Shown piece by piece: positions 1,417 through 57,044 of a stretch of DNA of 64,000 bases; position 1 is the stretch's first letter, and each line of letters starts with the position of its first letter. Below the pieces are notes generated by a model. It was not told the DNA's origin. It ran no database searches and was given only the letters and a program-made list of their open reading frames with translations. The stretch is from the NCBI GenBank assembly GCA_963703315.1, contig OY969811.1, forward strand, positions 972,728-1,036,727. The letters run 5' to 3'. The translations under genes and the position numbers were made by a program. The DNA is from an uncultured cyanobacterium (GTDB lineage: Bacteria; Cyanobacteriota; Cyanobacteriia; Pseudanabaenales; Pseudanabaenaceae).

Positions 1417-1453
1417 TTGCGATCGGCTTGAGAAGATAGATTGTTAATGCGAT
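1417..1453 (+). repeat. 37-bp direct repeat, copy 1 (left of GmrSD)
   Basis: TTGCGATCGGCTTGAGAAGATAGATTGTTAATGCGAT is 36/37 identical to 3415-3451. Confidence 0.95.
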
Positions 1454-1603
1454 CAAGTTTGAATTAGAGTAAAATCTGCGGTAATTTGCCCTTAAATAAC
1501 GAAACTAAATCACAGTTGTGTTATAAATTTTATAATTGTGAAGCTTAAGAATGCGGTATCCAATTTTTCAAGCATCAATAAATTAAACTTTCAGGAATCT
1601 TAA

Positions 1604-3322
1604 ATGTCATTTCAAATCCCAATCACTATTTCTGCTGCAATTAAAAATATTGAAAATAACCAATATTTACTTCCTGCTATTCAACGTGAATTTGTGTGGA
1701 GCCACGAAAAAATAGAATGGTTGTTTGATTCAATAATGAGAAATTATCCCATAAGTTCATTTTTGTTTTGGCGGGTTGAAGGTGACACTAGGAGAGACTA
1801 TAAGTTTTATCAATTCCTTAAAAATTTTAAGCAACGGTACGCAACTCATAATAACGAGTTCTCAACCACTGGTCACAACGATTTTACAGCAGTGCTTGAC
1901 GGTCAGCAACGTTTGACATCTCTTTATATAGGACTTTGTGGAAGTTATGCATACCGAACACCAAGACTCCATGAAGAAAATAATGAGCGCGTCTATCCAA
2001 CTAGACACCTATATTTGAATATTGAGAATCCGTTAGAAAATGAGGAAGATGGAAGAGATTTTGAATTTAAGTTTTTGAAGAAAAAAGAATTTGAGTCAAA
2101 CAAAGCAAAGTGGTTTAAGGTTTCTGAAATTCTCGCTCTTGCGGATGATTTTGAGTTCAATAGATATCTTGATAATCACAGTCTAAAAACAAATGAATTT
2201 TCATATAGAACTCTGGCGACGTTAAAGAATGTAATTCACTCAAAGCCAACCATAAACTTCTTCCTCGAAACAGAGCAAAGTCTTGATAAAGCGCTGAACA
2301 TTTTCATAAGAATAAACAGTGGGGGTGAACCACTAAATTTTTCAGATTTGCTCATGTCCATTGCTGTGGCTAATTGGAAAAGCAAAGATGCACGAAAAGA
2401 AATTCATACACTGGTCGATAACGTCAGAGAAAAAGGATTTTCAATTTCAAAAGATTTCATCTTGAAGACTTTTTTGTATCTGTACAGCAAAGACATTAAA
2501 TTTAAGGTTACAAATTTCTCAAAAGAAAATGCCAAGGAGTTTGAAAACGAATGGGATAAAATTCGAGATGCAATCCTTTCGGTATTCGATCTTGTAAGAT
2601 CATTTGGATTTTCTGATTCGACATTAACATCAAAAAATGCGTTGATTCCAATAATTTACTACATTTACCATAAAAATATATACAAAGACTTTCACACCAA
2701 AATTGCATATGAAAGCGATAGAAATACCATTAAAAAATGGCTCCACGTGGCTTTGGTTAAGCGAATTTTTGGCGGGACATCGGATAGTGTTCTTAGTCAA
2801 ATTCGCAGGGCATTCACTAGCGATGTATCGATAGCAGCTATTGAATCCCATACTCTAGGATTTCCTGTAAGTAGCATCAATGAAAACACAAAAAAAGATA
2901 TGGGGATTACGGATGAATTCATCACAGACATCTTACTGACCCAAAAAGATGACATGTATGCCTTCTCTATATTGGCATTGTTATATCCGAATCTTGACTA
3001 TAAAAACAACGACTTCAATAAAGATCATATACATCCAGCGAATAAGTTCGGCGACCTTTCAGTTGCTGACAAAGAAAAATATGGATGGGCGACTTACAAC
3101 TCTATTTTGAATCTTCAAATGCTGGATGCTAATGAGAACAAGTCAAAACAGGATAAAGATCTGTTAACTTGGGTCAATTTACAATTAGAGAAACAAGATC
3201 GATTCATATTTCTGAACAGCCATTTGATTCCAGATGTTAGCTTTGAAATTAAGGATTTCGGATCATTTATTGAAGCTCGAAGATTCATCTTGATTGACAA
3301 GCTTAAACAGATTTTGAGTTAA
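1604..3322 (+). CDS. GmrSD-family (DUF262 + DUF1524/HNH-like) putative modification-dependent restriction protein
   Basis: LPAIQREFVW, DGQQRLTSL and FIRINSGG (DUF262 motifs); C-terminal DHIHP...LNLQMLDANENKSK (HNH-like). I found no GCGATCGC in the gene. Confidence 0.88.
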   Translation: MSFQIPITISAAIKNIENNQYLLPAIQREFVWSHEKIEWLFDSIMRNYPISSFLFWRVEGDTRRDYKFYQFLKNFKQRYATHNNEFSTTGHNDFTAVLDGQQRLTSLYIGLCGSYAYRTPRLHEENNERVYPTRHLYLNIENPLENEEDGRDFEFKFLKKKEFESNKAKWFKVSEILALADDFEFNRYLDNHSLKTNEFSYRTLATLKNVIHSKPTINFFLETEQSLDKALNIFIRINSGGEPLNFSDLLMSIAVANWKSKDARKEIHTLVDNVREKGFSISKDFILKTFLYLYSKDIKFKVTNFSKENAKEFENEWDKIRDAILSVFDLVRSFGFSDSTLTSKNALIPIIYYIYHKNIYKDFHTKIAYESDRNTIKKWLHVALVKRIFGGTSDSVLSQIRRAFTSDVSIAAIESHTLGFPVSSINENTKKDMGITDEFITDILLTQKDDMYAFSILALLYPNLDYKNNDFNKDHIHPANKFGDLSVADKEKYGWATYNSILNLQMLDANENKSKQDKDLLTWVNLQLEKQDRFIFLNSHLIPDVSFEIKDFGSFIEARRFILIDKLKQILS

Positions 3323-3445
3323 GCAGACATTCGCAATGCCCCTGTGATCACATTCTATACAAAACTTGGTGTGCGTGAAGATGAGCTTCATTTTGACATT
3401 GCTGTTGATAGTAATTGCGATCGCCTTGAGAAGATAGATTGTTAA
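3323..3445 (+). pseudogene. 3' remnant of an AAC(3)-I-like GNAT acetyltransferase
   Basis: In frame after the GmrSD TAA it reads ADIRNAPVITFYTKLGVREDELHFDIAVDSNCDRLEKIDC*. This resembles the AAC(3)-I C-terminus ([27 protein letters not shown]). No 5' part or start codon. Confidence 0.7.
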
Positions 3446-3451
3446 TGCGAT
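3415..3451 (+). repeat. 37-bp direct repeat, copy 2 (right of GmrSD), starting at a perfect HIP1
   Basis: TTGCGATCGCCTTGAGAAGATAGATTGTTAATGCGAT. Confidence 0.95.
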
Positions 3452-3640
3452 GACTTTTTGGCTGTTGAAATGGAGAATTAGGCGATTTTGTTTCGGGGAG
3501 ATCAGACAAGATAAACGGCTCAATGCTTTTAATGACAGGTGTTTCAGAGATCGAAGACCTCCGAGGCTAAAACTATTGCACATCAAGAATTTCAGCTATT
3601 TAAGCTAAAGCAACTTCCCGAAACACCTATTGAGCCAATA

Positions 3641-5410
3641 TTAAAATGGATTAGCCGATATAGAAAAATAAATCCCATTTTCTTGTAAAGTTTTTTTCTC
3701 CGCCGAAATACGACTCAGGGGAATCCCAAAATCGAGTCGGATAGTGAGGCGATCGCTTATCTGTAAGCGCAATCCTGTACCTAATGCGGTCAAAGTGCTT
3801 GGATCAGGGTTGGTATTAGCTTGATGATTCCATACTGTACCAAAATCAAAGAATGGTACAACCTGTAAAAGTCCGCTAATTTCAGGAATCCGCAATATAG
3901 GAATCCGCACCTCGGCAGATAAAAGCAATCCATTATCGCTCAGCAGAGCATCTTGTCGATATCCTCGCAGGTTGTCTTGACCACCAATACTAATTTGTTC
4001 CTGTGACAAAAGTGGGCGATCGCTCAGTTGCAGATCGGCACGCAAAAATAACAGAGTTTCGGGGGCCAGCAGACGCACATATTGAGTTTGCCCGCGCCAT
4101 GCCAAAAATTGACTATCGGGAGATACATTATTGATCGTCGCGCCGAGCGCATTAATCCCTAAACTTAGTTGCGATCGCATCGCCAATACTTCTTCAGCAC
4201 TGCGTTGCACATATTCTTGAAAAAAGCGCAGCGCTGTAACTTTGGTCTGACCATCAGCATCAGCACCAAGGGAAGGAAAAGCAATTGTGCCGCCTAGTAA
4301 TGAGGCTGTACTTTGACGATGGCTCAGGGTTAAGCCTAGTGCCACATCTTGAGCAATAGTTTGAAAAATGGGTTGGCGGATTGTCAGTTCGTAATTTCGA
4401 GAATTAGAGGCAATATCGAGAATATTAAAAGGAGTTTCAATCACATTACTAGCAGAAGTTCCAAAGTTAAAGCTGATAGTTCCATTATAAGGATTGAAGG
4501 GAATTGTATAACTCGCATCAAAAGCATTACTACCGTTAGTATTGCTATATGAGAGACTTAGGCGATCGCCTAATCCTGCTAGATTTGCCTCGACAAGTTG
4601 GATTTGGCGACGCTCAGAGCCGACACTGGGAGTCCGACTATTATCAAAAGTAATTGGTATGTTAAAGGTTGGAGCCTCAGTCACCTTGATTTCTAAGTTA
4701 TTTAATCCCGCTTGCAAACTGGGGGACAAATTTGCCGATATGCTCTCAATTAGGGGATTAATTTGTAATAGTTGTAATGCTTCGAGTAGACGAGTACGGT
4801 TTAGAGGTTTCCCAGTGGCGATCGCTATTCGTGATTGAATATAGCCTGAATTAAGCCTGTTCAATCCTGTGACCTTAATTTCATCCAATCCTCCCTCAAT
4901 AACCTGAATCTTGACTATTCCTGTTTGTAAGTCCTGTTCTGGCAAATACGCCCCAGAGGTAATATAACCTCGCTCTAAATAAAGCTCTGTAATTTTAGTT
5001 CTAACTTGAAATAGTTCAATAATAGAAATTGGTTTGTTGGTATAGGATTTAGTAATATTCTCTAGTTCCTGATTGCTAAAAACACTGCTACCAATCACTT
5101 CAAACTTTTTAACTACAATCAATTCAGAATTGCTGTTGCTCGGAATTTGTGGAGATTGGGAATTTTCTAGATTTGGAAGAGTAAATAGACTGTCAGGAGC
5201 AGGCAGTTTAGACGGTTCAGTTGGGGTTTTAGGCGTAACTTTGGGAGCGATATCATTAGGAATTACTAAATTGCGTGGGATCGAGTTAGTTTGAGCAGCG
5301 ATCGCTTGAGGATAAGCATTAAATGCGATCGCGCTCAGTAGCACAACAATAGTATTTTTTTTGTCTTTAAATGTACAGATATACGCATACCATACTTTCA
5401 CAATAACCAC
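3641..5410 (-). CDS. ShlB/FhaC/HecB-family (TpsB) outer-membrane secretion/activation protein
   Basis: Signal-like N-terminus, POTRA segment (FEVIGSSVFS...ITELYLERGYITSG), IGGQDNLRGY loop-6 motif, and terminal F of a beta-barrel (YFSISANPF). Confidence 0.9.
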   Translation of the reverse strand: MVIVKVWYAYICTFKDKKNTIVVLLSAIAFNAYPQAIAAQTNSIPRNLVIPNDIAPKVTPKTPTEPSKLPAPDSLFTLPNLENSQSPQIPSNSNSELIVVKKFEVIGSSVFSNQELENITKSYTNKPISIIELFQVRTKITELYLERGYITSGAYLPEQDLQTGIVKIQVIEGGLDEIKVTGLNRLNSGYIQSRIAIATGKPLNRTRLLEALQLLQINPLIESISANLSPSLQAGLNNLEIKVTEAPTFNIPITFDNSRTPSVGSERRQIQLVEANLAGLGDRLSLSYSNTNGSNAFDASYTIPFNPYNGTISFNFGTSASNVIETPFNILDIASNSRNYELTIRQPIFQTIAQDVALGLTLSHRQSTASLLGGTIAFPSLGADADGQTKVTALRFFQEYVQRSAEEVLAMRSQLSLGINALGATINNVSPDSQFLAWRGQTQYVRLLAPETLLFLRADLQLSDRPLLSQEQISIGGQDNLRGYRQDALLSDNGLLLSAEVRIPILRIPEISGLLQVVPFFDFGTVWNHQANTNPDPSTLTALGTGLRLQISDRLTIRLDFGIPLSRISAEKKTLQENGIYFSISANPF

Positions 5411-8613: not shown

Positions 8614-10326
8614 ATGAGTTATAGAATGTCTCGTCGCGCTTATGCAGAAACCTATGGCGCAACCGTTGGTGATAAAGTTCGCTTAGCCGATACCGAATTA
8701 TTTATTGAAGTGGAACGCGACTACACCACCTATGGCGATGAAGTAAAATTTGGTGGTGGTAAGGTGATCCGTGATGGTATGGGGCAATCACCAATTACTA
8801 ATGTCAATGGAGCCGTTGATGTCGCGATTACCAATGCTTTAATTCTCGACTGGTGGGGCGTAGTGAAGGCAGATGTGGGGATTAAAGATGGCAAGATTGT
8901 AGCGATCGGGAAGGCGGGAAATCCTTACATTCAAGATAATGTCAATATCATTATCGGTGCGGGTACAGAAATCATCGCAGGAGAAGGAAGGATTCTCACC
9001 GCAGGCGGCATTGATACGCATATCCATTTTATCTGTCCACAACAAATTGAAGTAGCGATCGCCTCAGGCATTACGACAATGATCGGTGGCGGGACTGGCC
9101 CTGCCGTTGGCACAAATGCGACCACTTGCACCCCTGGTCCTTGGAATATGTACCGTATGTTGCAAGCCGCCGATGCTTTCCCGATGAATTTAGGATTTCT
9201 TGGTAAAGGTAATAGCAGCAAGCCTGAAGGCTTGGTTGAGCAGGTGGAAGCGGGTGCGATCGGGCTAAAACTTCATGAGGATTGGGGAACGACTCCCGCC
9301 ACGATTGATACTTGTTTAGGGGTTGCCGATGAGTACGATGTGCAGGTTGCTATTCACACCGACACGCTCAACGAAGCGGGATTTGTGGAAGATACGATCG
9401 CAGCTTTCAAAAATCGTGTGATCCATACCTATCACACCGAAGGTGCGGGTGGTGGTCACGCTCCCGACATTATCAAGATTTGCGGTGAAGCGAATGTTCT
9501 TCCCTCTTCCACAAATCCCACTCGTCCCTACACTTTAAATACTCTTGATGAACATCTGGATATGCTGATGGTCTGTCACCATCTCGATCCTAGCATTCCT
9601 GAAGATGTTTCCTTTGCAGAATCAAGAATCCGTCGCGAAACGATCGCTGCTGAAGATATTCTCCATGATATCGGCGCGTTTAGTATGATTTCTTCCGATT
9701 CGCAAGCAATGGGAAGAGTCGGTGAAGTAATCATTAGAACTTGGCAAACTGCCCACAAAATGAAAGTGCAGAGAGGGGTTCTCTCTAGTCCTGAAAGTAC
9801 TAGAGCCGACAATTTCCGCGCTCAGCGCTATGTGGCAAAATACACCATCAATCCCGCGATCGCGCATGGTATTTCTGAATATGTCGGTTCCATTGAAGTT
9901 GGTAAAATTGCTGATCTCGTTCTCTGGCATCCTGCCTTTTTTGGCGTAAAGCCTGAAATGGTTCTAAAGGGTGGATTTATTGCATGGTCACAGATGGGCG
10001 ATGCCAATGCCAGCATTCCCACACCGCAGCCTGTGTATATGCGTCCGATGTTTGGTAGCTATGGCGGTGCTATCGCGCCCACATCCTTTACTTTTATTTC
10101 TCAAGTTGCAATGGAGCGAGGTATTCCCAGTCAATTAGGACTCAAGAAACAAGTACTTACGGTTAAAGGAACTCGTAACATCAGCAAACGAGACTTAAAG
10201 CTCAATGATGCTTTACCAGTAATGGAAGTCGATCCAGAGACTTATGAAGTTAGAGCCGATGGTGAATTATTGACCTGTGAGCCAGCTTCTGTGTTGCCGA
10301 TGGCACAGCGATATTTCTTGTTTTAA
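8614..10326 (+). CDS. ureC: Urease alpha subunit
   Basis: [26 protein letters not shown] and [12 protein letters not shown] motifs. Confidence 0.99.
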
Positions 10327-24188: not shown

Positions 24189-24248
24189 TACTTTATCTAG
24201 ATTTTTCTAAGTGTTTATAGTTTCGATCAATATTTGAATATGTTGCTA

Positions 24249-24962
24249 TTAGTCAAATAGTTTTAAAAATTCTTTGAGTTCACCTAAAGCAGGATGTTCA
24301 AAATCCCAAATATGTAGTTTATTTGTCATTACATAATCAAAACCTGACATACTGCATTTTCTCCCAGCCTGCTCATTCTCCTCACCAATGCAAGTATCAA
24401 ACCGCAAATAGTTACTAACCCAAAATTTATCGAAATCTTTTTGACTAATTGATTCACTACTAAGTTTTTCTACACAGGTTTTCCATGCTTCAAGACAGTC
24501 GGCTTTTGGTGATGGTTGTGATTTAATTGATTTTAGTAATGTTTCTAATTCACCTTTACCGTTGATATTAACAAAATAGCAAGCTATCTGAAGAGAAAAT
24601 AGTTTTTGGTCAGATGCAACAAAAGAAATATTTATAAAACTGTTGATTCTTTCAATCTTATCTTGCTGTAATTGAGGAAAGATGCTTTTAATTGCATTAT
24701 TTATAAGATCAAACTTTTCTTCTTGAGAATTATCTGCATCTAAAATTATGCCAACCTTAGAGATATCGTTGTTTTCAGCAGCAGCCTTTATATCTCCTAA
24801 TTCACCTTTTAGAGAGGATAAACTTAACCCTCCCAAAGTCATATAATCATTATCAGATAGATTTATTTCGAGAATCTCTATGTTATGAATATTGAGATAA
24901 TTTACAAGAGATTGAATAAAGATTTTATCGTTTTTACTTTCAACAATTATACGGTTACTCAC
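24249..24962 (-). CDS. DUF3226-like TOPRIM-fold protein; probable GTG start at 24962 overlapping the ATPase stop
   Basis: IIVESKND (TOPRIM Glu), GIILDAD (DxD), GELETLL and WDFEHP motifs. Confidence 0.75.
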   Translation of the reverse strand: MSNRIIVESKNDKIFIQSLVNYLNIHNIEILEINLSDNDYMTLGGLSLSSLKGELGDIKAAAENNDISKVGIILDADNSQEEKFDLINNAIKSIFPQLQQDKIERINSFINISFVASDQKLFSLQIACYFVNINGKGELETLLKSIKSQPSPKADCLEAWKTCVEKLSSESISQKDFDKFWVSNYLRFDTCIGEENEQAGRKCSMSGFDYVMTNKLHIWDFEHPALGELKEFLKLFD

Positions 24963-26031
24963 CTCTAACTCTCCTATCATGAGACAAGCTATATTCAAGC
25001 GTTTCTATGTCACGTTTAATACCAATGATCTGCCCAGTTTTAATACTTCGAGCCATCTCAAAATGTGCAGCTAAATCACTAAATTCACTTTCTAATCCAA
25101 CTTTAGTAAATGCTGTAAGCATTTCCAAACTATGAGTAGTAGCAAATATTTGTACATTAAATTCTTGGGCTAAGTGAAATAATACTCTCCATAAACTAGT
25201 TTGATTAGTATAGTGAATCCCATTTTCTATTTCGTCTATGAGCAATATATTGCTATTGTTATTAACTATCGAAAGAATAATAATGGCAATCCTATTAATA
25301 GCATCTCCAAATAAAGGCAAAGGTAATCTTTTTTCATTATTGCGCGTTAAATAAAGCATAGGACTTCCTATGCCAAAATACTCAATTAAATCTATAGATG
25401 AATCAACAATCCTCAATCCATTCAACACTTCTTTTTCTCTATAATTAAGCCTAGCTTTATCATATTCATCTGCGATTTGCTGTTGAGAAAATACAAAACT
25501 AGATGGTATGAATGGGATATCATCTTTTCCTAAAGGCTTAAATCCATTTCCTAGAATACCTTGTTTATTAGCTATCAACTTACCTTTGAATGTTGTATCT
25601 TTGTTGATAACAGATTCTATTTGTATAGCAGATGATCTAGCAGACAAAGAATTTATATGTCTGGTAGTATCAATTAAGTTGTTTGATTCTATTAAGTTAT
25701 CATCATCAATTTCGACAAAAAAACTATTAGTCTGAGCGCTAATAGTTTTAGTATTAGTCTGAATAGAAATTGTCTTTGATTTATCTTGACTAAAAAACAA
25801 ATAATCCCAAGCTCTTTCAGGTAAGGTTTTGTCCAACTCTTCAGATTCATGACGATAACCCTTAAGAGATGCTAGTGTCTCTGGGTACGGAGAGCCGCCT
25901 AAAAGTAAAGCTTCTAGAAGTGCTGTTTTGCCTGCGTTATTTTTGCCAGTGATGAGATTGACGGTTTTAAAACCAGAGATTGAGGTGTTTTCAAAGCATC
26001 TAAAGTTTTGGATTGAGATATCTCTGATCAT
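24955..26031 (-). CDS. ABC-type AAA ATPase (AAA_15/AAA_21 family)
   Basis: Walker A GKNNAGKT, Walker B LLIDEIENGIH, H-loop ATTHS; no TM segments. Confidence 0.9.
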   Translation of the reverse strand: MIRDISIQNFRCFENTSISGFKTVNLITGKNNAGKTALLEALLLGGSPYPETLASLKGYRHESEELDKTLPERAWDYLFFSQDKSKTISIQTNTKTISAQTNSFFVEIDDDNLIESNNLIDTTRHINSLSARSSAIQIESVINKDTTFKGKLIANKQGILGNGFKPLGKDDIPFIPSSFVFSQQQIADEYDKARLNYREKEVLNGLRIVDSSIDLIEYFGIGSPMLYLTRNNEKRLPLPLFGDAINRIAIIILSIVNNNSNILLIDEIENGIHYTNQTSLWRVLFHLAQEFNVQIFATTHSLEMLTAFTKVGLESEFSDLAAHFEMARSIKTGQIIGIKRDIETLEYSLSHDRRVRGE

Positions 26032-26131
26032 GGATTTTATTGCCTAGACATTACAAAATATTTTAATCTGAAAACAAGAAAGGGCAGCGCATGGCACTAC
26101 CCTTTTAATTGCTGGAAATAGCGATCGCAAT

Positions 26132-43842: not shown

Positions 43843-46410
43843 TTACCGCATTGATTCGCGATGGACTTTGACTAATTTAATTTCATCCTCTTCTATTAAA
43901 TACTTATTCATCATGTAGACCACATACTCAGGCTTGAGATTGCTGTCGGGTTTACAACTACCCATAAAATGGATGGTGGGCAGTTCAGGATCAGGATTGA
44001 TCACGTTAATCGTAAAAATGCGATCGCGTAATTCAATCATTTGATCACGACCTGATTTGGACTTCTTCGGCATTTGGATCGAAGTTGCCGCTAAGACGCA
44101 GTAACTGGCTCCCTCTAGTAAATCCATAATGTCCGCCGCATTGCGCTCTTTAGGCGTGATGAAAGCACAGGTAAGCGTATACTCAGCAACCTCTAGCATT
44201 GCATCTAAAGAAGGCGCATTTACAGGTACTTCCTCGATCGCATAGATCGGCAAGTCAGCATCTAGTTCTTCTTGGAAACGCTGTTGAAAATCCTCGACAG
44301 GAATTACCTTAGTTAGCTCAAAATCCACAAACTCAGCACTGCTAGTTTGACCAAGAGGCAAAGCCTTCGCGATGGAAATGCGGGGTAATGGATTAAAGCC
44401 TTCCGTATGGGCAACGGGTAACGCCGCCCGCCTAGCCGCCCGTTGGAAGAATCGATAGAGATCCAAATGGGAAATTAAACTCATGTCGCCAAGCTTGCCA
44501 AACTTGAGGCGAATACGCTGCACTCTTGGCGGCACGATCGGTTTCTCTAGGGAAATGGGTGGTACTTCGGGCGGTGGGATGACTTCATTATGTCCAAATT
44601 CAGGTCCACAGACACCACACTCTGAGCAACCACCAAAGGAACAATCGGGAATTACTTGCGCCGCGATCGCCCTTTCCCAATCTTCGATCAGCCATTGCTT
44701 ATCAATCCCTGTATCAATGTGATCCCAAGGCAGAGGCTCGGACATTTTTAGTGATGGCGTATCCCAGACTAAACCTGCTTCAGCGATCGCCTGCGTCCAT
44801 GCCCCAAAAGCTTTCTCCGTATTCTCAAACCATGAGTCAAATCCTGCCCCCAGTTGCCATGCGCGATACAGCACCTTACCAAGACGGCGATCGCCACGCC
44901 CGACAAAATCCTCCATCGCACTGATGCGAACCTCGGTATAGTTGACCTTCACGCCACTCAAGCGGCGAAACTCTTGACGTAATAATTTCTGCTTCCGCAC
45001 AAATTCGCCACTAGAAACAGTATGCCACTGGAAAGGAGTATGGGGCTTGGGCGTGAAGTTAGAAATAGTCAAGTTAAAGGAAATCTTCTTCCGTCCCTTT
45101 TGCGAACATTCCTGTTGCAACCATTCCACTGTATTCACAATACCAATTACATCTTCATCGGTTTCTGTGGGTAAACCAATCATGAAATAGAGTTTGACCT
45201 TATCCCAACCTTCTGTATATGCAGTTTTAATCCCTTGCAATAGCTCATCATCAGTCAAGCCCTTATTAATCACATCCCGCAAGCGCTGTGTACCTGCCTC
45301 TGGTGCAAAGGTTAAGCCCTGTTGCCGACCATCACCACTACGCAGCATATGCGCTATGTTCTCATCAAAGCGATCGACTCTTTGACTCGGCAATGAGAGG
45401 GTAACGTGTTCATCTTTAAAGCGATTCTTAATCTGGACTCCCACCGATGGCAAAGCAAGATAATCAGAACAAGAGAGGGAAAGTAAAGAGAACTCATTAT
45501 AACCAGTTTCTCTGATTGCTTTCTCAATCGTATCGACCACTTTCTCTGGATCAACATCACGGGCAGGACGGGTCAGCATCCCCGGTTGGCAGAATCGACA
45601 GCCTCGCGTACAGCCGCGCCTGATTTCGATGGTTAAGCGATCGTGTACAGTTTCCACTAAAGGAACTAAGCCGATACTATGCTCAGGCATGGGAGTGGCG
45701 ACACGACGCAGGGCGCGAGGGGAAACATTACTACGATTGGGAGTGATTGCGCCTGTTTTCTCATCCATGTCGTAGAATTCGGGTACATAAACTCCATTTA
45801 CCTCATTGGCAAGATCAAGAAGAGTTTCGCGGCGAGGTTTCCCTGCGAGTTTGGCAGCTTTAATGACTTCCCCAATTTCAGGCAATAACTCTTCACCATC
45901 ACCAAGGGCAAAGAAATCGAAAAAGTCCGCATAGGGTTCGGGATTAGAAGTCGCCGTCTGTCCTCCTGCAAAGATTAATGGACATTCTTCAATGCTTAAT
46001 TCACTACGTTCTTGCCATGTCATCGGAATATTGGCAAGATCAAACATTTCGAGAACATTGGTTGCGCCTAGCTCATAGCTGAGACTAAAGCCTAAAATGT
46101 CAAATTCCCGCAGCGATCGCTTGGACTCCACGGCAAACAAATCCGTTTTAGTTTCGCGTAACTTTGTTGAGAGATCAGATGCTGGTAAATAGGCGCGATC
46201 GCATAGCTGACCATCTTTAGAATTAATAATGCTGTAAAGGATGATATGCCCCAAGTTGGACGCACCTACCTCATAGATTTCGGGATAGGTAAGCGACCAA
46301 CGCACGATCGCCTGATCCCAAGGTTTATGCACTGCGCCAAACTCGTTGCCTAAATAACGAGCAGGTTTGAGGATTTCGGAGTTAAGTAACTGTTCTACGG
46401 GTACAGGCAT
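43843..46410 (-). CDS. B12-binding radical SAM protein fused to a DUF2344-like domain (TIGR03960/TIGR03936-type)
   Basis: KPARYLGNE, RRGCTRGCRFC (CxxxCxxC), KLYFMIGLP, and C-terminal RIRLKFGK...ISHLDL..F.RA.RRA. Confidence 0.9.
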   Translation of the reverse strand: MPVPVEQLLNSEILKPARYLGNEFGAVHKPWDQAIVRWSLTYPEIYEVGASNLGHIILYSIINSKDGQLCDRAYLPASDLSTKLRETKTDLFAVESKRSLREFDILGFSLSYELGATNVLEMFDLANIPMTWQERSELSIEECPLIFAGGQTATSNPEPYADFFDFFALGDGEELLPEIGEVIKAAKLAGKPRRETLLDLANEVNGVYVPEFYDMDEKTGAITPNRSNVSPRALRRVATPMPEHSIGLVPLVETVHDRLTIEIRRGCTRGCRFCQPGMLTRPARDVDPEKVVDTIEKAIRETGYNEFSLLSLSCSDYLALPSVGVQIKNRFKDEHVTLSLPSQRVDRFDENIAHMLRSGDGRQQGLTFAPEAGTQRLRDVINKGLTDDELLQGIKTAYTEGWDKVKLYFMIGLPTETDEDVIGIVNTVEWLQQECSQKGRKKISFNLTISNFTPKPHTPFQWHTVSSGEFVRKQKLLRQEFRRLSGVKVNYTEVRISAMEDFVGRGDRRLGKVLYRAWQLGAGFDSWFENTEKAFGAWTQAIAEAGLVWDTPSLKMSEPLPWDHIDTGIDKQWLIEDWERAIAAQVIPDCSFGGCSECGVCGPEFGHNEVIPPPEVPPISLEKPIVPPRVQRIRLKFGKLGDMSLISHLDLYRFFQRAARRAALPVAHTEGFNPLPRISIAKALPLGQTSSAEFVDFELTKVIPVEDFQQRFQEELDADLPIYAIEEVPVNAPSLDAMLEVAEYTLTCAFITPKERNAADIMDLLEGASYCVLAATSIQMPKKSKSGRDQMIELRDRIFTINVINPDPELPTIHFMGSCKPDSNLKPEYVVYMMNKYLIEEDEIKLVKVHRESMR

Positions 46411-46413
46411 AGA
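46305..46413 (-). repeat. 109-bp direct repeat, copy 1 (functional 5' end of the radical SAM gene)
   Basis: 102/109 identical to 50486-50594 by hand alignment. Confidence 0.95.
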
Positions 46414-46518
46414 TGTTTTTCAAAATTTGATCTAGCTTTATTTTACATTGGCATAGACAAGAGGCTTAAGACCCTCGTTAATCAAAGGTTCACTAAGCTG
46501 TAATTGTATTCATTTCTC

Positions 46519-47085
46519 TTAAAATGTCACATCTTCATAAAGATCGGCAAATTTCCCTTCAAAGTTGATGCTCGACAATTGGAAACTGTCTTGCTCTCCA
46601 GAGTATGACTTCAAGAACCAAACACCTTCTTCGTTGCGGCGAAAACAATCAAGGCGTTGACGTTTGGTGTTGACTAGAACATATTCTTCTAGAGTTTCTA
46701 TTTGTTGATAATCAGCAAATTTGTCACCGCGATCAAATGCTTCTGTAGACTTTGATAGAACTTCGATAATTAGTTTAGGATATCTCTTTTGATTTTGTGA
46801 TTGGATATCTCTAGGATCGCAAGTCACCATCACATCTGGATAATAAAAGCGGTTTAATGAATCGATTCTCGCTTTCATGTCAGAAATATAAACACGACAG
46901 CCTGATCCTCGTAAATGATTACGAATCATCATAAAAGCATTACTTGCGATCGTGACATGAGTATCGTTTGCGCCAGCCATTGCATAAACATATCCATCGA
47001 TATATTCGTGTTTAATTGCGCTTTGTTCTTCCATTTCGAGATATTCGTCTGGAGTTATGTAATCAAATTTTGGTGTGGCAATCAT
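46519..47085 (-). CDS. Uma2 family protein
   Basis: KHEYIDG, YYPDVMVTCD, LIIEVLS and DRGDKFADY motifs. Confidence 0.93.
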   Translation of the reverse strand: MIATPKFDYITPDEYLEMEEQSAIKHEYIDGYVYAMAGANDTHVTIASNAFMMIRNHLRGSGCRVYISDMKARIDSLNRFYYPDVMVTCDPRDIQSQNQKRYPKLIIEVLSKSTEAFDRGDKFADYQQIETLEEYVLVNTKRQRLDCFRRNEEGVWFLKSYSGEQDSFQLSSINFEGKFADLYEDVTF

Positions 47086-47113
47086 ATTTAGTTACTTATA
47101 GTTTTTGATTAGT

Positions 47114-47173
47114 TATAGCTGTCGCCAGTCTTGTTAGAACATAAAACCAAAAAAGCAAGTGACTACAGCTATA
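47114..47173. mobile_element. Short MITE-like element (TATAGCTGT...ACAGCTATA) lacking the internal hairpin
   Basis: 9-bp terminal IR; left end matches TATAGCTGTCGCCA at 56939. Confidence 0.65.
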
Positions 47174-47202
47174 TCTAAGAATAATGAAATCAGGGGCATA
47201 GC

Positions 47203-47256
47203 GCGATCGCCATATAGCGCTTTTAGCTCTCGATTGAGTTCGTTAAGTACTAGCAT
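47203..47256 (-). pseudogene. Remnant of a second MNT gene 5' end, similarity ending at HIP1
   Basis: 47203-47249 is 42/47 identical to 47887-47933; it reads LNELNRELKALYGDR versus LNELKRELQALYGDR. Confidence 0.8.
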
Positions 47257-47260
47257 AGTT

Positions 47261-47638
47261 TTATTGCTCATTCAAAATTTTCTCTACTTCGCCAATAAAA
47301 TCTTTTGCTTTCTCTAAAAGCACTTCTGCTTCAGCTAATGTTCCCGTAAAGTCTGCATCATAGTCACTCAATTGTCTTAGCTCGTAAGCATCGCTTAATA
47401 TTTTTGCCCATTCGGGAGAGAATTTTCCTGTCTTCACAAAATGCTGTCCAAATAGGCGAATTGTACCTTTATGTGTGGAAGTATCTAGGTTTTGGGATAG
47501 CAATAAAGCTTTGGTTGCGTAATATATGGAATAATAGGAACGCGAGAGGTAAGTGCGATAACGCTCACGCTCTAATAAAAGTTCTGCTATTTCTAGTTCT
47601 TCTAGAGATAAAGAAAATAGTTTTTTATGTTCGTTCAT
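47261..47638 (-). CDS. HEPN domain protein (MNT-HEPN pair)
   Basis: SRSYYSIYYATKALL, THKG and RQLSDY (Rx4-6Y/H-type) motifs. Confidence 0.9.
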   Translation of the reverse strand: MNEHKKLFSLSLEELEIAELLLERERYRTYLSRSYYSIYYATKALLLSQNLDTSTHKGTIRLFGQHFVKTGKFSPEWAKILSDAYELRQLSDYDADFTGTLAEAEVLLEKAKDFIGEVEKILNEQ

Positions 47639-47964
47639 AATTCAATTCCTTCTTTTCTAATATTTCTTAAAAACTCAACATCTCTTTTGCTGAAGTCTTC
47701 TTCGGTGACAGGGATAATAGAGACAAGTTCATCACGTTCTAGTAATATTTTGACACGCAGGTTGGACATATAGGAGATCTCTTGTACTTGAGATACGGGG
47801 CTTTTGAGTACGGCTAGTAAGTCAATATCTGAGTCTGGAGTGGCTTCGCCTCTGGCGTGGGAACCAAATAGAATTAATTTAACAAGGCGATCGCCATATA
47901 GTGCTTGCAACTCTCGCTTGAGTTCGTTAAGTATTGGAGTAATGCTCGTTAAAGTGGTAGTCAT
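47635..47964 (-). CDS. Minimal nucleotidyltransferase (MNT)
   Basis: LFGSHARG...SDIDL; ATGA overlap with the HEPN gene. Confidence 0.92.
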   Translation of the reverse strand: MTTTLTSITPILNELKRELQALYGDRLVKLILFGSHARGEATPDSDIDLLAVLKSPVSQVQEISYMSNLRVKILLERDELVSIIPVTEEDFSKRDVEFLRNIRKEGIEL

Positions 47965-48141
47965 TTTCTAAGGAAAGTAACGATAAAATTCTTTGCGGTG
48001 TAATGTGCGGATGACTTCTACTGTGTTACCCGAAATTTCTATGCCAATGCGATAGTCACCTACTCGAATACGATAACGGGTTGAATATCCTTGCATGGCT
48101 TTAATATTCGGTAGTTCCTGCAAGTTCTGAGCTTCAGGCAA

Positions 48142-49434
48142 TAGGGCAACCGCACACGTTTCTTAACAAACTAGCGAACATTTCTTAACGAGGAAAAAAG
48201 GGAGAAACGGGAGAATTGAGGATATTTAGAAAGATAAGTCCAAAATGCTAGCAACAGTCAGTCCCGTCGGATTAATCGAAACCCACTTTGGGAACTTGCA
48301 AGATCCCAGAGCAGCACACAGTATCCTGCATAAGCTACTCGACATATTGATAATCACGATTTGTGCAGTGATCTGTGGAGCCGATAACTTCGTAGCAATC
48401 GCCGAATATGGCAAAGAGAAAGAAGAATGGTTAAAGACATTTTTGGAATTAGCAAACGGCATACCGTCAGTAGATACATTCGAGAGATTATTTGCGAGAC
48501 TGAAGCCAGAAGCATTGCAAAAAAGCTTTATTAGCTGGATGGAAGCAGTCCATGAATCCACCGACGGAGAATTGATAAACATAGATGGCAAAACCCTGAG
48601 AGGAGCAAAGGAAGCAGGAAATTCGCGTAGTCTGATTCATATGGTGAGTGTGTGGTCAGCATCACAACATTTGGTATTGGGACAGCAAAAAGTGGACGAG
48701 AAATCCAATGAAATAACAGCGATTCCATCATTGCTAAAAATGTTAGCGATACGAGGTTGTGTGGTGAGCATAGATGCAATGGGATGTCAGACCGAAATCG
48801 CGAAAACAATCATCGAAGAGGGAGCAGATTATGTGTTAGCACTGAAAGGCAATCAAGGTAATCTCCATAAAGATGTGCGTGAACTATTTACCTCTGCACG
48901 AGAACAGAACTTCAAAAATATTGAACATCAGTTCTATGAAACGGTTGAGAAAGGACATGGGCGCATTGAAACTCGTCGCTATTGGACAATGGGTAATACC
49001 GAATACTTAATCGGTGCAGAGAAATGGATAGGTTTGAAAAGTATTGGTATGGTTGAATCAGAGCGCATTATAAATGGAATTATTTCTACTGAGCAGCGAT
49101 ACTATCTGCTTAGTCTTGAGAGTGATGTCCACAGATTTTCCCAATCTGTCAGAAATCACTGGAGTATTGAAAATCAACTACATTGGATTCTTGATGTTGG
49201 TTTTGGTGAAGATGCTTCGCAATCCTGCCGAGGCTATATTGCCGAAAACTTGGCTGTTATACGTCATATCAGTTTAAATTTGTTGTCAAGAGATAAAAAC
49301 AGTAAGGTCGGTGTCAAGACAAAACGTCTTAAAGCTGGCTGGAACAACAACTATCTTAAGGATATCCTGAGTACCTTAAACATAGTCGCTGTCTAAATCT
49401 CGTTAATTGTTAAGAAACGTGTGCGGTTGCCCTA
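48142..49434 (+). mobile_element. ISAs1-family insertion sequence (1293 bp)
   Basis: Perfect 28-bp TIR (TAGGGCAACCGCACACGTTTCTTAACAA) and 10-bp TSD CTTCAGGCAA at 48132-48141 and 49435-49444. Confidence 0.97.
48245..49396 (+). CDS. ISAs1 family DDE transposase (intact ORF)
   Basis: DPR...H.L, IDGK, KSNEITAIP, IDAMGCQ, LKGNQ, GHGRIE and HWSIEN.LHW.LD motifs. Confidence 0.97.
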   Translation: MLATVSPVGLIETHFGNLQDPRAAHSILHKLLDILIITICAVICGADNFVAIAEYGKEKEEWLKTFLELANGIPSVDTFERLFARLKPEALQKSFISWMEAVHESTDGELINIDGKTLRGAKEAGNSRSLIHMVSVWSASQHLVLGQQKVDEKSNEITAIPSLLKMLAIRGCVVSIDAMGCQTEIAKTIIEEGADYVLALKGNQGNLHKDVRELFTSAREQNFKNIEHQFYETVEKGHGRIETRRYWTMGNTEYLIGAEKWIGLKSIGMVESERIINGIISTEQRYYLLSLESDVHRFSQSVRNHWSIENQLHWILDVGFGEDASQSCRGYIAENLAVIRHISLNLLSRDKNSKVGVKTKRLKAGWNNNYLKDILSTLNIVAV

Positions 49435-49541
49435 CTTCAGGCAAGGTTGTAAAGGCAATTTCAGAGATGCGTTGATATACTGATGTGCCTTTCAGATTTT
49501 TGAGATCTTTCAAAAATGACTGACGATAATTCACTTCCATT

Positions 49542-49757
49542 TTAATCCTCTAAAAAAGCTAGAGCTTCTGCATGGGAGTAAAGAGGAGTTTTTTTACCTT
49601 CATCCATTGCTTTATTGAGACAATAATCTTCTATAGCTTCGCTAAGGTCTTCTAGGGAGGCGTTATCAATGGGTAGGAGTTGTCTCCAAATTGCGATGGG
49701 GATGACAACGGCGGTTGTTTGTCCTTCTTTGTTAGTTAGATATTCAAGGTCTAGCAT
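49542..49757 (-). CDS. Putative antitoxin upstream of relE
   Basis: 71-aa acidic protein (EGQTTAVVIPI...IEDYCLNKAMDE) whose stop is 1 nt before the relE ATG. Confidence 0.8.
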   Translation of the reverse strand: MLDLEYLTNKEGQTTAVVIPIAIWRQLLPIDNASLEDLSEAIEDYCLNKAMDEGKKTPLYSHAEALAFLED

Positions 49758-49847
49758 GATTGACTCTCTTGTTGATGTTTTTGTGTAAACTTTCTTTTAT
49801 TTTATAACTTTAGCTAAGGGCGATCGCTTAGTCATGTATTTACAAAA

Positions 49848-50330
49848 TTACGGGAATGGAAAGCCTCCATGTTTGGTAATAATTTGATCGATGTCGCTCA
49901 TGATCTCGATGGTTTCTCCCAAGATGGAAATGATGTTTTGATAATGAAAGAGGTCGTCAAAGCTGAGTTCGCGTCCTCCCACATACCAGCGAAATTCTAA
50001 ATGATCCGTTAAAATCAAATTCCCTAAAGCATTAAAATAACGCTGCATTTGGTTCTTCTTTTCCAAACTTTTTAGCGAAATTCCAATATCCTTAGCCTCA
50101 AGATGTCCAACCTCTAACGCCCCCTGTCCAATCCAAAAATCTGGCGCACCGCAAGCAATCTGCTTCGGCTCATTCACCGCCAAAATATCATTACCAAAAG
50201 ACTCAAGCAATCTCTTCAACGCAGGACGATAGGTATGCTCCGTTGCATTCCCCTTTTGATAAATCTGCGTCACATCTTGCAAATAAGCTTGAATTTGATT
50301 AGTCATTATGTTAGTTGTAGAACCACTCAT
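49848..50330 (-). pseudogene. Internally deleted type ISP/IIG-like restriction-modification gene (N- and C-termini fused in frame)
   Basis: N-terminal ATEHTYRP..GAPDF..LEAK..TDHLEFRWY is joined to the C-terminal-type GRELSFDDLFHYQNII..LGETIEIM. No MTase motifs. Confidence 0.75.
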
Positions 50331-50474
50331 ATCAAAACCCTGCTTATCTTTAGCTCATATTCTAAAGCGGTGTCATTTATACTATGACCTAAACTCGAAA
50401 TATATCATTCAAATCTAGTTTAGCCTTTCTACCTGACTATTTGCTGAATATAGCGATCGCTAATCTATTCATCA

Positions 50475-50594
50475 TCAATACCAAGCGATCGCCTGATCCC
50501 AAGGCTTATGTACTGCGCCAAACTCGTTACCCAGATAACGGGCAGGTTTGAGGATTTCGGAGTTAAGTAACTGTTCTACGGGTACGGGCATAGA
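50475..50594 (-). pseudogene. Truncated duplicate 5' end of the radical SAM gene (35 identical codons, then AWY*); direct repeat copy 2
   Basis: ATG 50591; homology ends at GCGATCGC 50485-50492; all 7 differences are synonymous. Confidence 0.95.
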
Positions 50595-50654
50595 GTTTCA
50601 TCAATTTTTGAGCTATGTGTATTTTACATTTAGCGCGATCGCGATTAGTTATAA

Positions 50655-51004: not shown

Positions 51005-51733
51005 TTATGCTATTGAGTCAAATAACATTGAAGTCATATAACGATCAGCCCATTCTTCACCAAAGGACTTTTCGAGAACTCGCCGAGTTTTATCGTTTTG
51101 TTGTTGCTTAGCGCAATAATATTGCTGACCTGCGATCGCATTGGCAACATCCGTTTCAGAAGTTAATGGCTCGATGTTGTTAGCAATCTGACAATGAATA
51201 GTCAAAAAATCTTGAACTCTTTGCAAAAATGCTGCTTCTTCCTCGGCTCCTATAGGGCGAACAAATAAACAAAACTCAGAAAAAATATCTGCCCATTCAG
51301 GTAGAGCGCGAGGATTTGTAAATTCTATATTTTTTAAGTTGGCTAAGCTCTGTTGGTAATTAGGAGGTAAAGATTTTTCTCGATTACTAGGTGATAGATC
51401 GGCGATCGCAGCGCTAATTCCTCCACGTCCTCCTACAATATCTGCCCCAAAAATTGGTAAGGCATACTCAGGATTGGGGAACATGACACAATGCAAAATA
51501 TCTAAGCCATTACCCACCTGAGCTAGCTCTAGATGCAGCTTGCGAAATTGCTTGGTTTGATAACAACAATTTTCAATTACTAACTTCTCTCCCTCTAAAT
51601 GCCCTTCAATGTAGCCTAAGCCTTCTGGGATAATATATGGCTCAAGACTTAGATGATTTTTCCAAATTTCTTCAATGGAGTTAGCTAGTTTCTGAATTAA
51701 ATGATGTTGGCGAGTTCGCAATGATGATGACAT
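51005..51733 (-). CDS. pcyA: Phycocyanobilin:ferredoxin oxidoreductase
   Basis: [26 protein letters not shown] and [16 protein letters not shown] motifs. Confidence 0.97.
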
Positions 51734-55264: not shown

Positions 55265-55303
55265 CTGTAGAGACTGATAGCACTGAGTATCCTCTTAAGA
55301 AAA

Positions 55304-55510
55304 TTAAGAAGACTGCTCCAGTTTTTGTTTAATTAAACTTTCAATTTCTGGAAGATCAGCTATTGACTGAGGCATAGCAAAGGTTGCTGGTGATGCACTC
55401 ACTGTAAAGCGATCAACAAATATCCGAAATGCGTCTTTGTCACTGGGATGAGCAATGACATAAGCGCGTAACTCTTTCTTAGTCATTGTGTTGAAATCGA
55501 GCTTAATCAC
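55304..55510 (-). CDS. DUF6887-like small protein (GTG start overlapping the upstream stop)
   Basis: FNTMTKKELRAYVIAHPSD.DAF. Confidence 0.7.
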   Translation of the reverse strand: MIKLDFNTMTKKELRAYVIAHPSDKDAFRIFVDRFTVSASPATFAMPQSIADLPEIESLIKQKLEQSS

Positions 55511-55680
55511 AAAAACCTCCAAAGACCATTCCGATAAATTTCTATTTCTATATTATCGCCAGCCAGTATGAATATATTGCCTGTCCGTTCATCTAGACGT
55601 AATAGGAAAATGGGAGTAAAAGTGTTTGTCAAAGATTGGCATAATATGACACATATAATGCTTTGTTCGGAAGTGGGCAA
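55507..55680 (-). CDS. DUF6888-like small protein, 57 aa, absent from the ORF track
   Basis: TTG start; MPTSEQ...LCQSLTNTFTPIFLLRLDERTGNIFILAGDNIEIEIYRNGLWRFL*; GTGA overlap with the next gene. Confidence 0.72.
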   Translation of the reverse strand: MPTSEQSIICVILCQSLTNTFTPIFLLRLDERTGNIFILAGDNIEIEIYRNGLWRFL

Positions 55681-55753
55681 AATTGATAAACCTCATGAGA
55701 TTTAAATGTAGAAAGTGACCTAAGCTCACTTTCTACATTTGGTAATTAATACT

Positions 55754-56812
55754 TTAAGGATAGAAAGTGAGCTTAGGTAAAGCTAATGACTCTTCCCAAC
55801 CCATCATGATGTTCATACATTGCACCGCTTGGGCGGCTTGACCTTTCATCAGGTTATCGATCGCTGAAACTACGATTACACGTCCTGTCCGCTCATCAAC
55901 CTCCACACCCAGATAACAGAGATTTGTGCCTAGCGCCCATTTCGTCTGCGGGAAGATATTTTTTGGTAAAACCTGCACCCATTCGGAATTGCGATAAAAA
56001 GATTTGTAAATAGTTAACACATCTTCCTTAACCAGTCCGGGGTCACGCAATTTGGCATATACCGTTGAAAGAATGCCACGAATCATCGGGATCAGATGTG
56101 GTGTGAATTGCACTAATACCTCTTGTCCAGCCAGATCACTGCAAATTTGTTCAATCTCAGGGGTATGTCGATGACTAGCAATACCATAAGCTGCGAGAGA
56201 GCCATCAGCTTCGGCGAGTAATAGGTTAGTTTTGGGTTGACGACCACCACCCGATGTACCTGATTTTGCATCAATGATAATCGTACTAGGCTCAACTAAG
56301 CCCTGTTTGAGCAATGGCTGTAACGCTAGCAAACTTGCCGTAGGATAGCAACCTGCACAACCTACAAGATCAGCAGTGGCAATGCGATCGCGATAAATTT
56401 CTGGTAAGCCATATACAGCTTTGGCATTAACCTCAGCATCAGTACGCGCCTCCTTATACCAAGATTCATAAACTTGCAGATCGGTGAATCGATAATCGGC
56501 GGAAAGATCAAGCACTTTACATCCCTTAGCGAGTAACCGTGGTGCAATTTTGCTAGCAAGACCATTAGGCAGGGATAAAAAGACGATTTTGGCGCGATCG
56601 GCGATCGCTTCAGGCTCCAGATTTTCGATTGGTAAATTCACTGCATGGGCGATATGCGGATAGAGATCAGCAAAATTTTGCCCGACAGAACCACTCCCAC
56701 CCATATAGGTAATATCCACCAATGGATGCTCTAGTAGCAATCGCACCAACTGGATACCACCATAACCCGATGCACCAATAATACCTACGGGGACGCGATT
56801 CTGTGCGCTCAT
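55754..56812 (-). CDS. argC: N-acetyl-gamma-glutamyl-phosphate reductase
   Basis: GASGYGG, DLSADYR, AGCYPT, SGTSGGG and DNLMKGQA motifs. Confidence 0.97.
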
Positions 56813-56938
56813 AAACTTACTCCACCAAAATATTGAAAATACTCATGGAAAATGCTTTCCGAGTTTGCGAAAACAACTTAGCATAAGCTAGGTGTCTAAA
56901 CTCAATTCGTGCCTTAAAGCACTATGTTTTTATAGCAA

Positions 56939-57044
56939 TATAGCTGTCGCCATTTGTATTAAAACAAATCAAAACCCAAGAAGTGAGTTGCGCCGCGAAG
57001 CGGCGCAACTCACTTCTTGGGTTCTGACTGGTGACAGCGATCGC
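56939..57044. mobile_element. MITE-like element with a perfect 24-bp GC-GAA-GC hairpin; right end replaced at a HIP1 site
   Basis: Left end TATAGCTGTCGCCA; hairpin 56973-57023; right end TGGTGACAGC runs into GCGATCGC 57037-57044. Confidence 0.7.

Follow-up and report, generated by a model that had tools for sequence, protein, structure and literature searches.

Does the octamer HIP1 (GCGATCGC) mark the places where accessory genes join a cyanobacterial chromosome? The question is raised by a 64,000-nucleotide (nt) stretch of the chromosome of an uncultured Pseudanabaena (C1:972728-1036727, here called the window; the genome is complete, with 4,565,174 bp and 42% GC), in which edges of gene remnants and of small defence and toxin–antitoxin (TA) cassettes had been noted at HIP1. 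Few oligomers known in bacteria are as over-represented as HIP1, and what it does has been under debate since 1995; it has been proposed to act as a recombination site, a Chi-like site or an uptake signal, or to arise as a by-product of mismatch repair. The window contains 144 HIP1 sites (one per 444 bp) against 0.84 in dinucleotide shuffles, and the genome contains 8231 (1.8 per kb, median gap 359 nt). An earlier note on the window, whose positions for all 144 sites are correct, had proposed that HIP1 serves as a general joint for the gain and loss of defence and TA genes. We find that the bare octamer does not mark breakpoints in general in this genome. A narrower class of element, short junction repeats framed by HIP1, does border small accessory cassettes, and whether these repeats act as portable recombination joints is in our view evenly balanced.

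The proposal of a general joint drew on six cases, three of which (at a radical SAM gene, an MNT gene and a GmrSD gene) are exact, one (an ATPase/DUF3226 pair) is refuted and two (ends of miniature inverted-repeat transposable elements, MITEs) are negligible. At the radical SAM gene the 5′ end is present twice, copy 2 (50486-50630) being 88% identical to copy 1 (46305-46449). The earlier note had placed one end of this duplicate at HIP1 50485, and the case is stronger than was claimed, with HIP1 at both borders of copy 2 (50485-50492 and 50635-50642) and support from an alignment with seven orthologous loci in seven species, from which we read the joints. On the left, copy 1 and most orthologues (in genomes G007, G003, G034, G042 and G002) have CACGATCGCC and copy 2 has AAGCGATCGCC, which places the joint inside a CGATCGC common to both partners. 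The gene's ACGATCGCC has here become GCGATCGCC, a change consistent with a crossover in CGATCGC microhomology. On the right, copy 2 tracks the leader of a G050-type allele (…TATTTTACATTTAGC) as far as HIP1 50635 and then diverges, and copy 1 runs on into a flank common to G006 and G007. With its left joint in CGATCGC and its right end at HIP1 50635, the displaced fragment is therefore a HIP1-to-HIP1 piece.

Between the two copies lies a variable island that contains the second exact case. A remnant of an MNT gene and the parent segment in the intact gene both open with GCGATCGCC, and to the left of it their similarity falls to the random level, bearing out the claim that the similarity ends at HIP1 47203. 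Joints within HIP1 or its CGATCG core that leave a single octamer, as in illegitimate recombination at HIP1, are found at both ends of the radical SAM fragment and at the start of the MNT remnant.

In the third case a GmrSD gene is flanked by two repeats (1411-1460 and 3409-3458) that hold GCGATCGG at 1419 and GCGATCGC at 3417. The earlier note had the repeats start at these two octamers; they are indeed there, inside the repeats, with similarity beginning about 8 nt ahead of them. No HIP1 lies between 966 and 3417. Each repeat is a copy of a beta unit (GCGATCGCC-TTTAGAAGATAGATTGTTGAT, 30 nt), so that the gene is flanked by two beta units; in an array elsewhere in the genome beta units alternate with alpha units (GCGATCGCC-TAGAAATCACGACTCACAGTAATA, 33 nt). 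The cassette is 92% identical in P. biceps (G053), where it stands in another context, with an alpha unit upstream in place of the core-gene terminator found upstream in the window. The DNA common to the two starts in the left beta unit and takes in the half-HIP1 GCGATC before the cassette leader; on the other side homology fades in the course of the right beta unit, with none left past its terminal HIP1-like octamer. The conserved 3′ tail of the cassette is 85% identical to the tail of a GNAT cassette of the main array and is also present in G006, G044, G055 and G048. The closest match to the GmrSD protein is in P. biceps O153 (the same G053; 90% amino acid identity), and relatives at 70-80% identity occur in Methylobacter, Thiorhodococcus, Pseudomonas, Marinobacter and others. 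Together with a body that is HIP1-free and low in GC, these relatives mark the gene as a recent import by horizontal transfer. Genes acquired horizontally can be recognised by their paucity of HIP1 (Elhai et al. 2012, PMC3497702), which accounts for the HIP1-free interiors of both the GmrSD cassette and the ATPase/DUF3226 pair, with their low GC and foreign relatives; this marker concerns the composition of the cargo and not the joints. The right beta unit is separated from a ShlB/FhaC-type gene (3641-5410) by a 150-nt dispersed repeat at 3488-3644. This repeat is probably a MITE, and most Pseudanabaena genomes have numerous copies of it.

The three exact cases are all low-copy, same-strand direct repeats, 0.7-4.2 kb apart, and we therefore searched the genome for local repeats of this class by comparing each 12-kb tile with itself (151 low-copy pairs of 30-400 nt and at least 85% identity; null from local shifts of 60-600 nt). 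HIP1 lies within 5 nt of 163 of the 547 ends (29.8%), compared with 3.2% (sd 0.7%) in the null. The effect is largest for repeats of 30-60 nt (37% versus 2.8%), smaller for those of 60-150 nt (13.6% versus 3.3%) and absent at local repeats or duplications of at least 150 nt. Forty-one pairs, at 17 loci, have HIP1 at the same edge of both copies. Over the 30 nt past the HIP1 edges, ungapped identity is 27%, against 25.5% for random pairs, so that the breaks are sharp and do not reflect decayed homology; this also excludes a gradual-decay artefact in which high-scoring segment pairs (HSPs) are anchored on a conserved HIP1. The repeats have a common architecture of HIP1, 18-26 nt and HIP1, with a spacer sequence that varies by locus. 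The 17 loci are rows of small modules (PIN, MNT/HepT, PemK/MazF, HicA, ParE, HigB/HigA, DUF4160, DUF29, DUF433 and a second GmrSD_N). At three mini-arrays (C1:1211738-1213131, 3470045-3471895 and 4514356-4522341), HIP1-framed direct repeats of 33-120 nt separate TA pairs (DUF4160/DUF2442, VapC, RelE-like, HicAB, HigBA) and the second GmrSD_N gene.

Further copies of the GmrSD repeat are nearly all located at 2731.7-2748.1 kb, on one strand. This main array (C1:2731700-2748100; L025:2700-19100), about 17 kb long and outside the window, consists of mostly co-oriented accessory cassettes set apart by alpha and beta units, with genes for HNH, GNAT, DUF1993, TauE, HSDR_N-like, Uma2, LysE and NUDIX proteins. 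Runs of units directly follow stop codons, stand 30-170 nt ahead of the next start codon and share the orientation of the genes. Of 48 Pseudanabaena genomes, 43 have the beta pattern, which is clustered, co-oriented within clusters and often spaced at 63 nt (the reversed control gives 0-1 matches per genome); a class-level scan found it in Pseudanabaena only, that is, in one of the 100 genera sampled. Across 20 array loci in ten species, runs comprise 1-12 units whose number and order vary between species. The cargo extends beyond defence and TA modules: the families among 150 array open reading frames (ORFs) include GNAT (7), AAA_21 (7), SDR (6), methyltransferases (5), TetR (5), LysR (4) and Uma2 (4), as well as ABC/HlyD. 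No recombinase is among the 25 commonest families of these ORFs, and no tyrosine recombinase (PF00589) lies near the arrays in G000, G002, G040 and G037, where all matches are distant. The only Y1 transposase gene (PF01797), at 348969-349250, is remote from the arrays.

Terminal units commonly retain GCGAT, GCGATC or GCGATCG, that is 5-7 nt of HIP1, before unique DNA begins. Because the length of this remnant varies, the joint lies within the octamer and not at one fixed base. Cutting and ligation by a CGATCG-specific endonuclease would fit the left joint of the radical SAM fragment and does not fit terminal units in which GCGATC is followed by AAAC or GCGAT by TACC. The units are not MITEs, as they have no inverted termini and occur mainly in one array with a few solo copies. 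Nor do they form a CRISPR array: the alpha and beta spacers are both kept from one locus and species to the next, and the runs have genes between them.

The species representatives of the genus have at best 73-92% DNA identity to this genome (closest G006 and G002) and are strongly rearranged, and BLAST blocks against these relatives stop at ORF ends, so that the comparison was restricted to specific cassettes. Arrays from ten species were compared with one another, and the ends of the resulting HSPs (200 nt or longer and 75% or more identical) were taken as ends of cassette homology. Sixteen per cent of these ends fall inside HIP1 (null 2.1%) and 27% within 5 nt of it (null 4.9%). Runs of alpha and beta units make up 4% of the DNA, and 44% of the ends lie in them or within 10 nt of them (null 5%); outside recognised runs, 9.6% of ends are still within 5 nt of HIP1, versus 3.1%. 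One cassette found in three species is preceded in one by an alpha unit, in another by the 3′ end of a GNAT gene and HIP1, and in the third by the same 3′ end and a degenerate octamer.

The enrichment does not extend to repeats in general. Among 29 repeat regions listed in the window without selection, 2 of 58 ends are within 5 nt of HIP1 (null 4.1%), both belonging to radical SAM copy 2, and 5 of 58 are within 10 nt (null 6.4%). In a genome self-BLAST, repeat ends as a whole are depleted near HIP1 (1.2-1.4% within 5 nt, compared with 3.3% of random positions). This set is dominated by ends of high-copy MITEs and insertion sequences (IS), which are depleted (0.2-0.3% versus 2.4%), and shows no enrichment at dispersed, strictly two-copy repeats or at repeats of at least 400 nt. 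Taken as one class, the self-BLAST gave no or weak enrichment, and a split into local and dispersed, low- and high-copy repeats and by length was needed. The commonest other octamers could not serve as independent controls, all being flanks of HIP1 (ATCGCC and the like). The idea of HIP1 as a general joint is thus too broad for dispersed repeats, for IS and MITE ends, for repeats of 150 nt or more and for the joints of the ATPase module, and it retains its force in that HIP1-ended sequences border small TA and defence modules. HIP1 spacing has structure of its own: gaps of less than 20 nt between HIP1 sites are strongly depleted genome-wide (56 observed versus 174 expected), and pairs spaced 26-33 nt number 158 against 113 expected, with peaks at 27, 30, 31 and 33 nt.

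The ATPase/DUF3226 pair had been described as lying between HIP1 24171 and HIP1 26121 with none inside. The 1950-nt HIP1-free gap is real (310 gaps of more than 1900 nt exist genome-wide), and the actual joints lie some 40 and 70 nt away from the closest HIP1. HIP1 26121 belongs to core DNA because it is kept in G002, G007, G015 and G037, all of which lack the cassette at this site. G007 shares the DUF212 3′ side with the window up to about 26076, and the genomes that carry the pair elsewhere (G009 and G007) match to about 26084 on one side and to the DUF3226 stop codon (24247-24249) on the other, with no HIP1 at either edge of the pair in these two genomes. Metagenome contigs that encode an identical DUF212 protein have the same pair at the same site, at 75-94% identity. 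The middle of the ATPase gene (24955-26031), at window positions 25470-25752, is not alignable in three diverged contigs, which suggests a hypervariable segment of a defence-type ATPase. Exact-protein look-ups in metagenome contigs gave no other contexts, yielding short contigs with the same context or no match.

The two MITE cases do not stand. The element at 56939 was said to lose its right end at HIP1 57037; its right inverted repeat is nearly complete, with 10 of the first 11 bases present before HIP1, which overlaps its last bases. The lone end at 50677 is 35 bp away from HIP1 and so not at HIP1. Genome-wide, one of 85 ends of the family has HIP1 within 40 nt outside it, which rules out targeting of HIP1 by this MITE; the family starts with TA, fitting a TA target.

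Table 1 Features of the window (positions in the window)
Feature	Position	Strand	Description
Left beta junction unit	1419-1454	+	Near-HIP1 GCGATCGG, 22-nt spacer CTTGAGAAGATAGATTGTTAAT, half-HIP1 GCGATC, then cassette-specific DNA
GmrSD-type gene (GmrSD_N/DUF262)	1604-3322	+	Pfam 6.6e-33; HIP1-free, low GC
Cassette 3′ tail, conserved	3323-3416	+	Homologous to 3′ end of main-array GNAT cassette (genome 2738270-2738398)
Right beta junction unit	3417-3452	+	HIP1, 22-nt spacer, degenerate HIP1 GCGATGAC
HIP1 in hup terminator hairpin loop	24171-24178	.	Not a cassette joint
AAA_15/AAA_21 ATPase and DUF3226 pair	24249-26031	−	32.5% GC, HIP1-free; moves as a module, edges 24247-24249 and ~26076-26084
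HIP1 between DUF212 stop codon and terminator	26121-26128	.	Core DNA, not a joint
Radical SAM gene	43843-46410	−	Pfam
Radical SAM copy 1	46305-46449	−	Functional 5′ end (35 codons) and 39-nt leader; ACGATCGCC at 46304-46312, as in orthologues
Variable island	46450-50484	.	~4 kb: Uma2, MNT remnant, HEPN, MNT, IS, ORF
Uma2	46519-47085		Island gene
MNT remnant (5′ part of gene)	47203-47249	−	Cut exactly at HIP1 common to both copies
HEPN	47261-47638		Island gene
MNT (intact)	47635-47964		Island gene
MNT parent segment in intact gene	47887-47933	−	Starts at HIP1 47887
IS, DDE_Tnp_1 transposase	48142-49434		Seven identical genome copies; 95% identity in G006
ORF	49848-50330		Island gene
Radical SAM copy 2	50485-50642	−	Displaced 5′ fragment, G050/G003-like allele; HIP1-to-HIP1 fragment
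MITE, family inverted repeat TATAGCTGTCGCCA	56939-57044	.	Last 4-5 nt of right repeat replaced by or overlapping HIP1 57037-57044

In the island at the radical SAM gene (Table 1), the Uma2 gene and the HEPN/MNT pair are modules that each turn up separately in Pseudanabaena genomes, in dozens of contexts. Uma2 stands upstream of radical SAM in several species, so that the site is a recurrent insertion spot. The IS has an empty site in G048 with an overlap of about 10 nt, and there is no HIP1 near its ends. We sought an ancestral empty site of the whole island, and no relative has radical SAM adjoining the gene at 51005-51733. Elsewhere in the window, an Rfam match to 5_ureB_sRNA (8769-9055, minus strand; 116 bits, E 1e-29) falls inside a 570-amino-acid ORF (8614-10326) and is probably conserved coding sequence, not a small RNA (sRNA) gene.

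The evidence partly supports the view that the agent is a set of dedicated HIP1-framed junction repeats, together with occasional microhomology joints, and not every HIP1 octamer. A unit of this kind consists of HIP1 and a spacer of 18-26 nt, closed by the next HIP1, and occurs singly or in tandem in the orientation of the genes. Such units would supply 30-100 nt of portable homology, between two runs of which ordinary RecA-type recombination could insert, delete or swap DNA, whether the partners are two copies of the chromosome or one of them has come in by natural transformation. HIP1 may frame the units for two reasons: it may favour the crossover through a Chi-like effect, as reported for Synechococcus PCC 7002, and it may offer 7-8 nt of microhomology for occasional illegitimate joints. 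The latter would leave HIP1-to-HIP1 fragments such as the displaced radical SAM 5′ end and the truncated MNT gene. The RecA-type route of exchange is inferred, as is any stimulation of it by HIP1 or by HIP1 methylation.

Several known systems resemble parts of this arrangement. Gupta et al. (1993) reportedly found that the smt locus of Synechococcus PCC 6301 can undergo a HIP1-associated deletion, and de Vries and Wackernagel (2002) are said to have described homology-facilitated illegitimate recombination in naturally transformable bacteria. One-sided homology combined with GC-rich microhomology of 3-10 nt, as in the latter process, would yield the radical SAM arrangement, in which a new 5′ allele and the island would stand before the displaced old 5′ end, joined at CGATCGC; that process is not known to act at HIP1 in cyanobacteria and by itself does not explain conserved tandem families of units. 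HIP1 has been tied to both site-specific and illegitimate recombination in work cited in PMC4390886: Akiyama et al. (1998) on the recombination of plasmids in PCC 7002, and Robinson et al. (1997) on excision between two HIP1 sites. The likeness lies in joints within HIP1 or its CGATCG core that leave one HIP1, as at the left radical SAM joint, the MNT remnant and the unit ends with their partial HIP1. What those studies describe is single events at bare HIP1 in laboratory constructs or mutants, whereas here we find conserved repeat families in natural arrays and no general effect of bare HIP1. In Synechococcus PCC 7002, HIP1 gives a Chi-like stimulation of integration that depends on homology and methylation (Kamoku and Nielsen 2024, bioRxiv 10.1101/2024.09.10.611283), which offers a reason why short homology bearing HIP1 would be a favoured crossover site for incoming DNA. 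That study used transformation with engineered plasmids and had no natural junction repeats or arrays, and a possible role of the present units as Chi-like hotspots is drawn from this literature. Together, the published links between HIP1 and recombination (PMC4390886; bioRxiv 10.1101/2024.09.10.611283) lend support to the proposed RecA-type exchange with a contribution of HIP1. In a 2026 study, phylogenetic correlation connects HIP1 with horizontal transfer, with no mention of cassettes or islands (PMC13756078), and we found no published description of HIP1-framed junction repeats or cassette arrays in Pseudanabaena.

Other repeat systems share the setting of the units and not their anatomy. 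Chromosomal integrons and the integrase-less attC clusters known as CALIN (Cury et al. 2016, PMC4889954) likewise hold small co-oriented accessory cassettes (TA, GNAT, unknowns) with a recurring short site and content that varies among relatives, as the present arrays do. They differ in that no IntI, which CALIN lack by definition, lies near the arrays here, and that the position of the joints varies by a few bases. An attC site is an imperfect inverted repeat (R''-L''...L'-R') with a GTTRRRY core, and our units are direct tandem repeats framed by GCGATCGC, whose closest motifs (GTTGATG and GTTAATG) depart from that core. Nostoc small dispersed repeats (SDR) insert inside HIP1, with SDR5 showing HIP1 as a precise target (Elhai et al. 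2008, as cited in PMC4390886). These elements and the REP/BIME repeats with RAYT transposases resemble the units in being short, non-coding and intergenic, the former in cyanobacteria. The units lack the GTAG-tagged hairpin of REP/BIME-RAYT elements and are clustered, not dispersed, with the sole Y1 transposase gene far away. Folding, repeat layout and the positions of recombinase and Y1 genes led us to reject an identity of the units with integron, REP/RAYT or CRISPR elements.

Could the units serve gene expression and not recombination? They might be regulatory or structural intergenic elements (parts of promoters, operators, terminators or sRNAs) that travel with the cassettes, with HIP1 produced by substitution pressure and without a role in recombination, and cassette edges coinciding with them as both are intergenic. 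Their co-oriented placement between stop and start codons agrees with this, as do the ability of a neighbouring HIP1 pair to form a stem of 8-9 bp, the presence of HIP1 in core terminators of the window (24171) and the spread of HIP1 by point substitution (Robinson 1997, as cited in PMC4390886). We nevertheless consider it unlikely. Most units fold no better than shuffles (z -0.01 to -2.1; one run -5.7), Rfam returned no match for alpha or beta units (nor was there a CRISPR match), and promoters or terminators do not usually form tandem runs of as many as 12 units that differ between species in number and order. It is inside the runs that interspecies homology breaks, and the radical SAM and MNT joints lie in coding sequence, not regulatory DNA. 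The co-oriented arrays of small, mostly promoter-less cassettes with GNAT, TA and small unknown cargo and species-dependent content also call to mind an integron-like system, in which a dedicated, unrecognised recombinase would act on the HIP1-spacer-HIP1 unit, possibly folded as a single-stranded DNA hairpin like attC, and cut within HIP1. A unit sequence that varies by locus within a constant architecture, as with attC, and the start of unique DNA after GCGAT, GCGATC or GCGATCG in many terminal units would agree with such an enzyme. The missing recombinase genes, a joint whose position in HIP1 varies over 5-7 nt, identity that decays within units, direct repeats without inverted R''/R' cores and weak folding make it quite improbable in our estimation.

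It is also conceivable that at one HIP1 per 444 bp some edges land on the octamer by chance and that only these were listed. The unselected window list, the failure of three of the six cases as HIP1 joints and the lack of enrichment at dispersed two-copy repeats genome-wide all point this way, and chance is adequate for the ATPase/DUF3226 pair and for the MITE cases at 56939 and 50677. As a general explanation it is very improbable: all three non-MITE local direct repeats in the window have a HIP1 or near-HIP1 edge, the rate of 30% versus 3% for local direct repeats genome-wide argues strongly against chance for that class, and the unit family is kept in 43 genomes with clean controls.

Several observations weigh against HIP1-framed repeats as portable joints. 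With the nearest genomes 73-92% identical, there is no pair of empty and filled sites within a species at base resolution, and no recombination event was directly observed. The GmrSD identity fades inside the right beta unit and not exactly at HIP1, which fits exchange driven by homology and leaves a role of HIP1 unproven. The repeat ends are not independent, the alpha/beta array alone contributing 13 of the 41 pairs, so that the 17 loci are the safer figure. A repeat that runs from HIP1 to HIP1 must end at HIP1, and the enrichment establishes the architecture and its link with cassette borders, not a mechanism or enzymology. The surplus of HIP1 pairs at 26-33 nt is only modest. No HIP1 effect is seen at dispersed repeats of two copies, ends of IS and MITEs are scarce near HIP1, and the ATPase/DUF3226 edges are without HIP1.

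Two claims that tend to be run together are thus kept apart: in this genome, rearrangement breakpoints are not marked by ordinary HIP1 octamers, and the borders of mobile accessory cassettes are marked by HIP1-framed units. The alpha and beta units are a defined natural substrate in which a role of HIP1 in recombination is testable by a change of eight bases. A broader and more tentative possibility, which we lean against at present, is that cyanobacteria run an integrase-free cassette platform, in which HIP1-spacer-HIP1 units of lineage-specific sequence and constant architecture would be dedicated joints for capturing, shuffling and discarding TA, anti-phage and accessory modules, including proteobacterial arrivals such as GmrSD, with HIP1 and its methylation directing the crossover. 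If true, HIP1 would have a definite part to play in the plasticity of genomes. The present results suggest how defence and TA modules, foreign genes included, may enter cyanobacterial chromosomes without integrases, which is of relevance to the annotation of defence islands and to cyanobacterial engineering.

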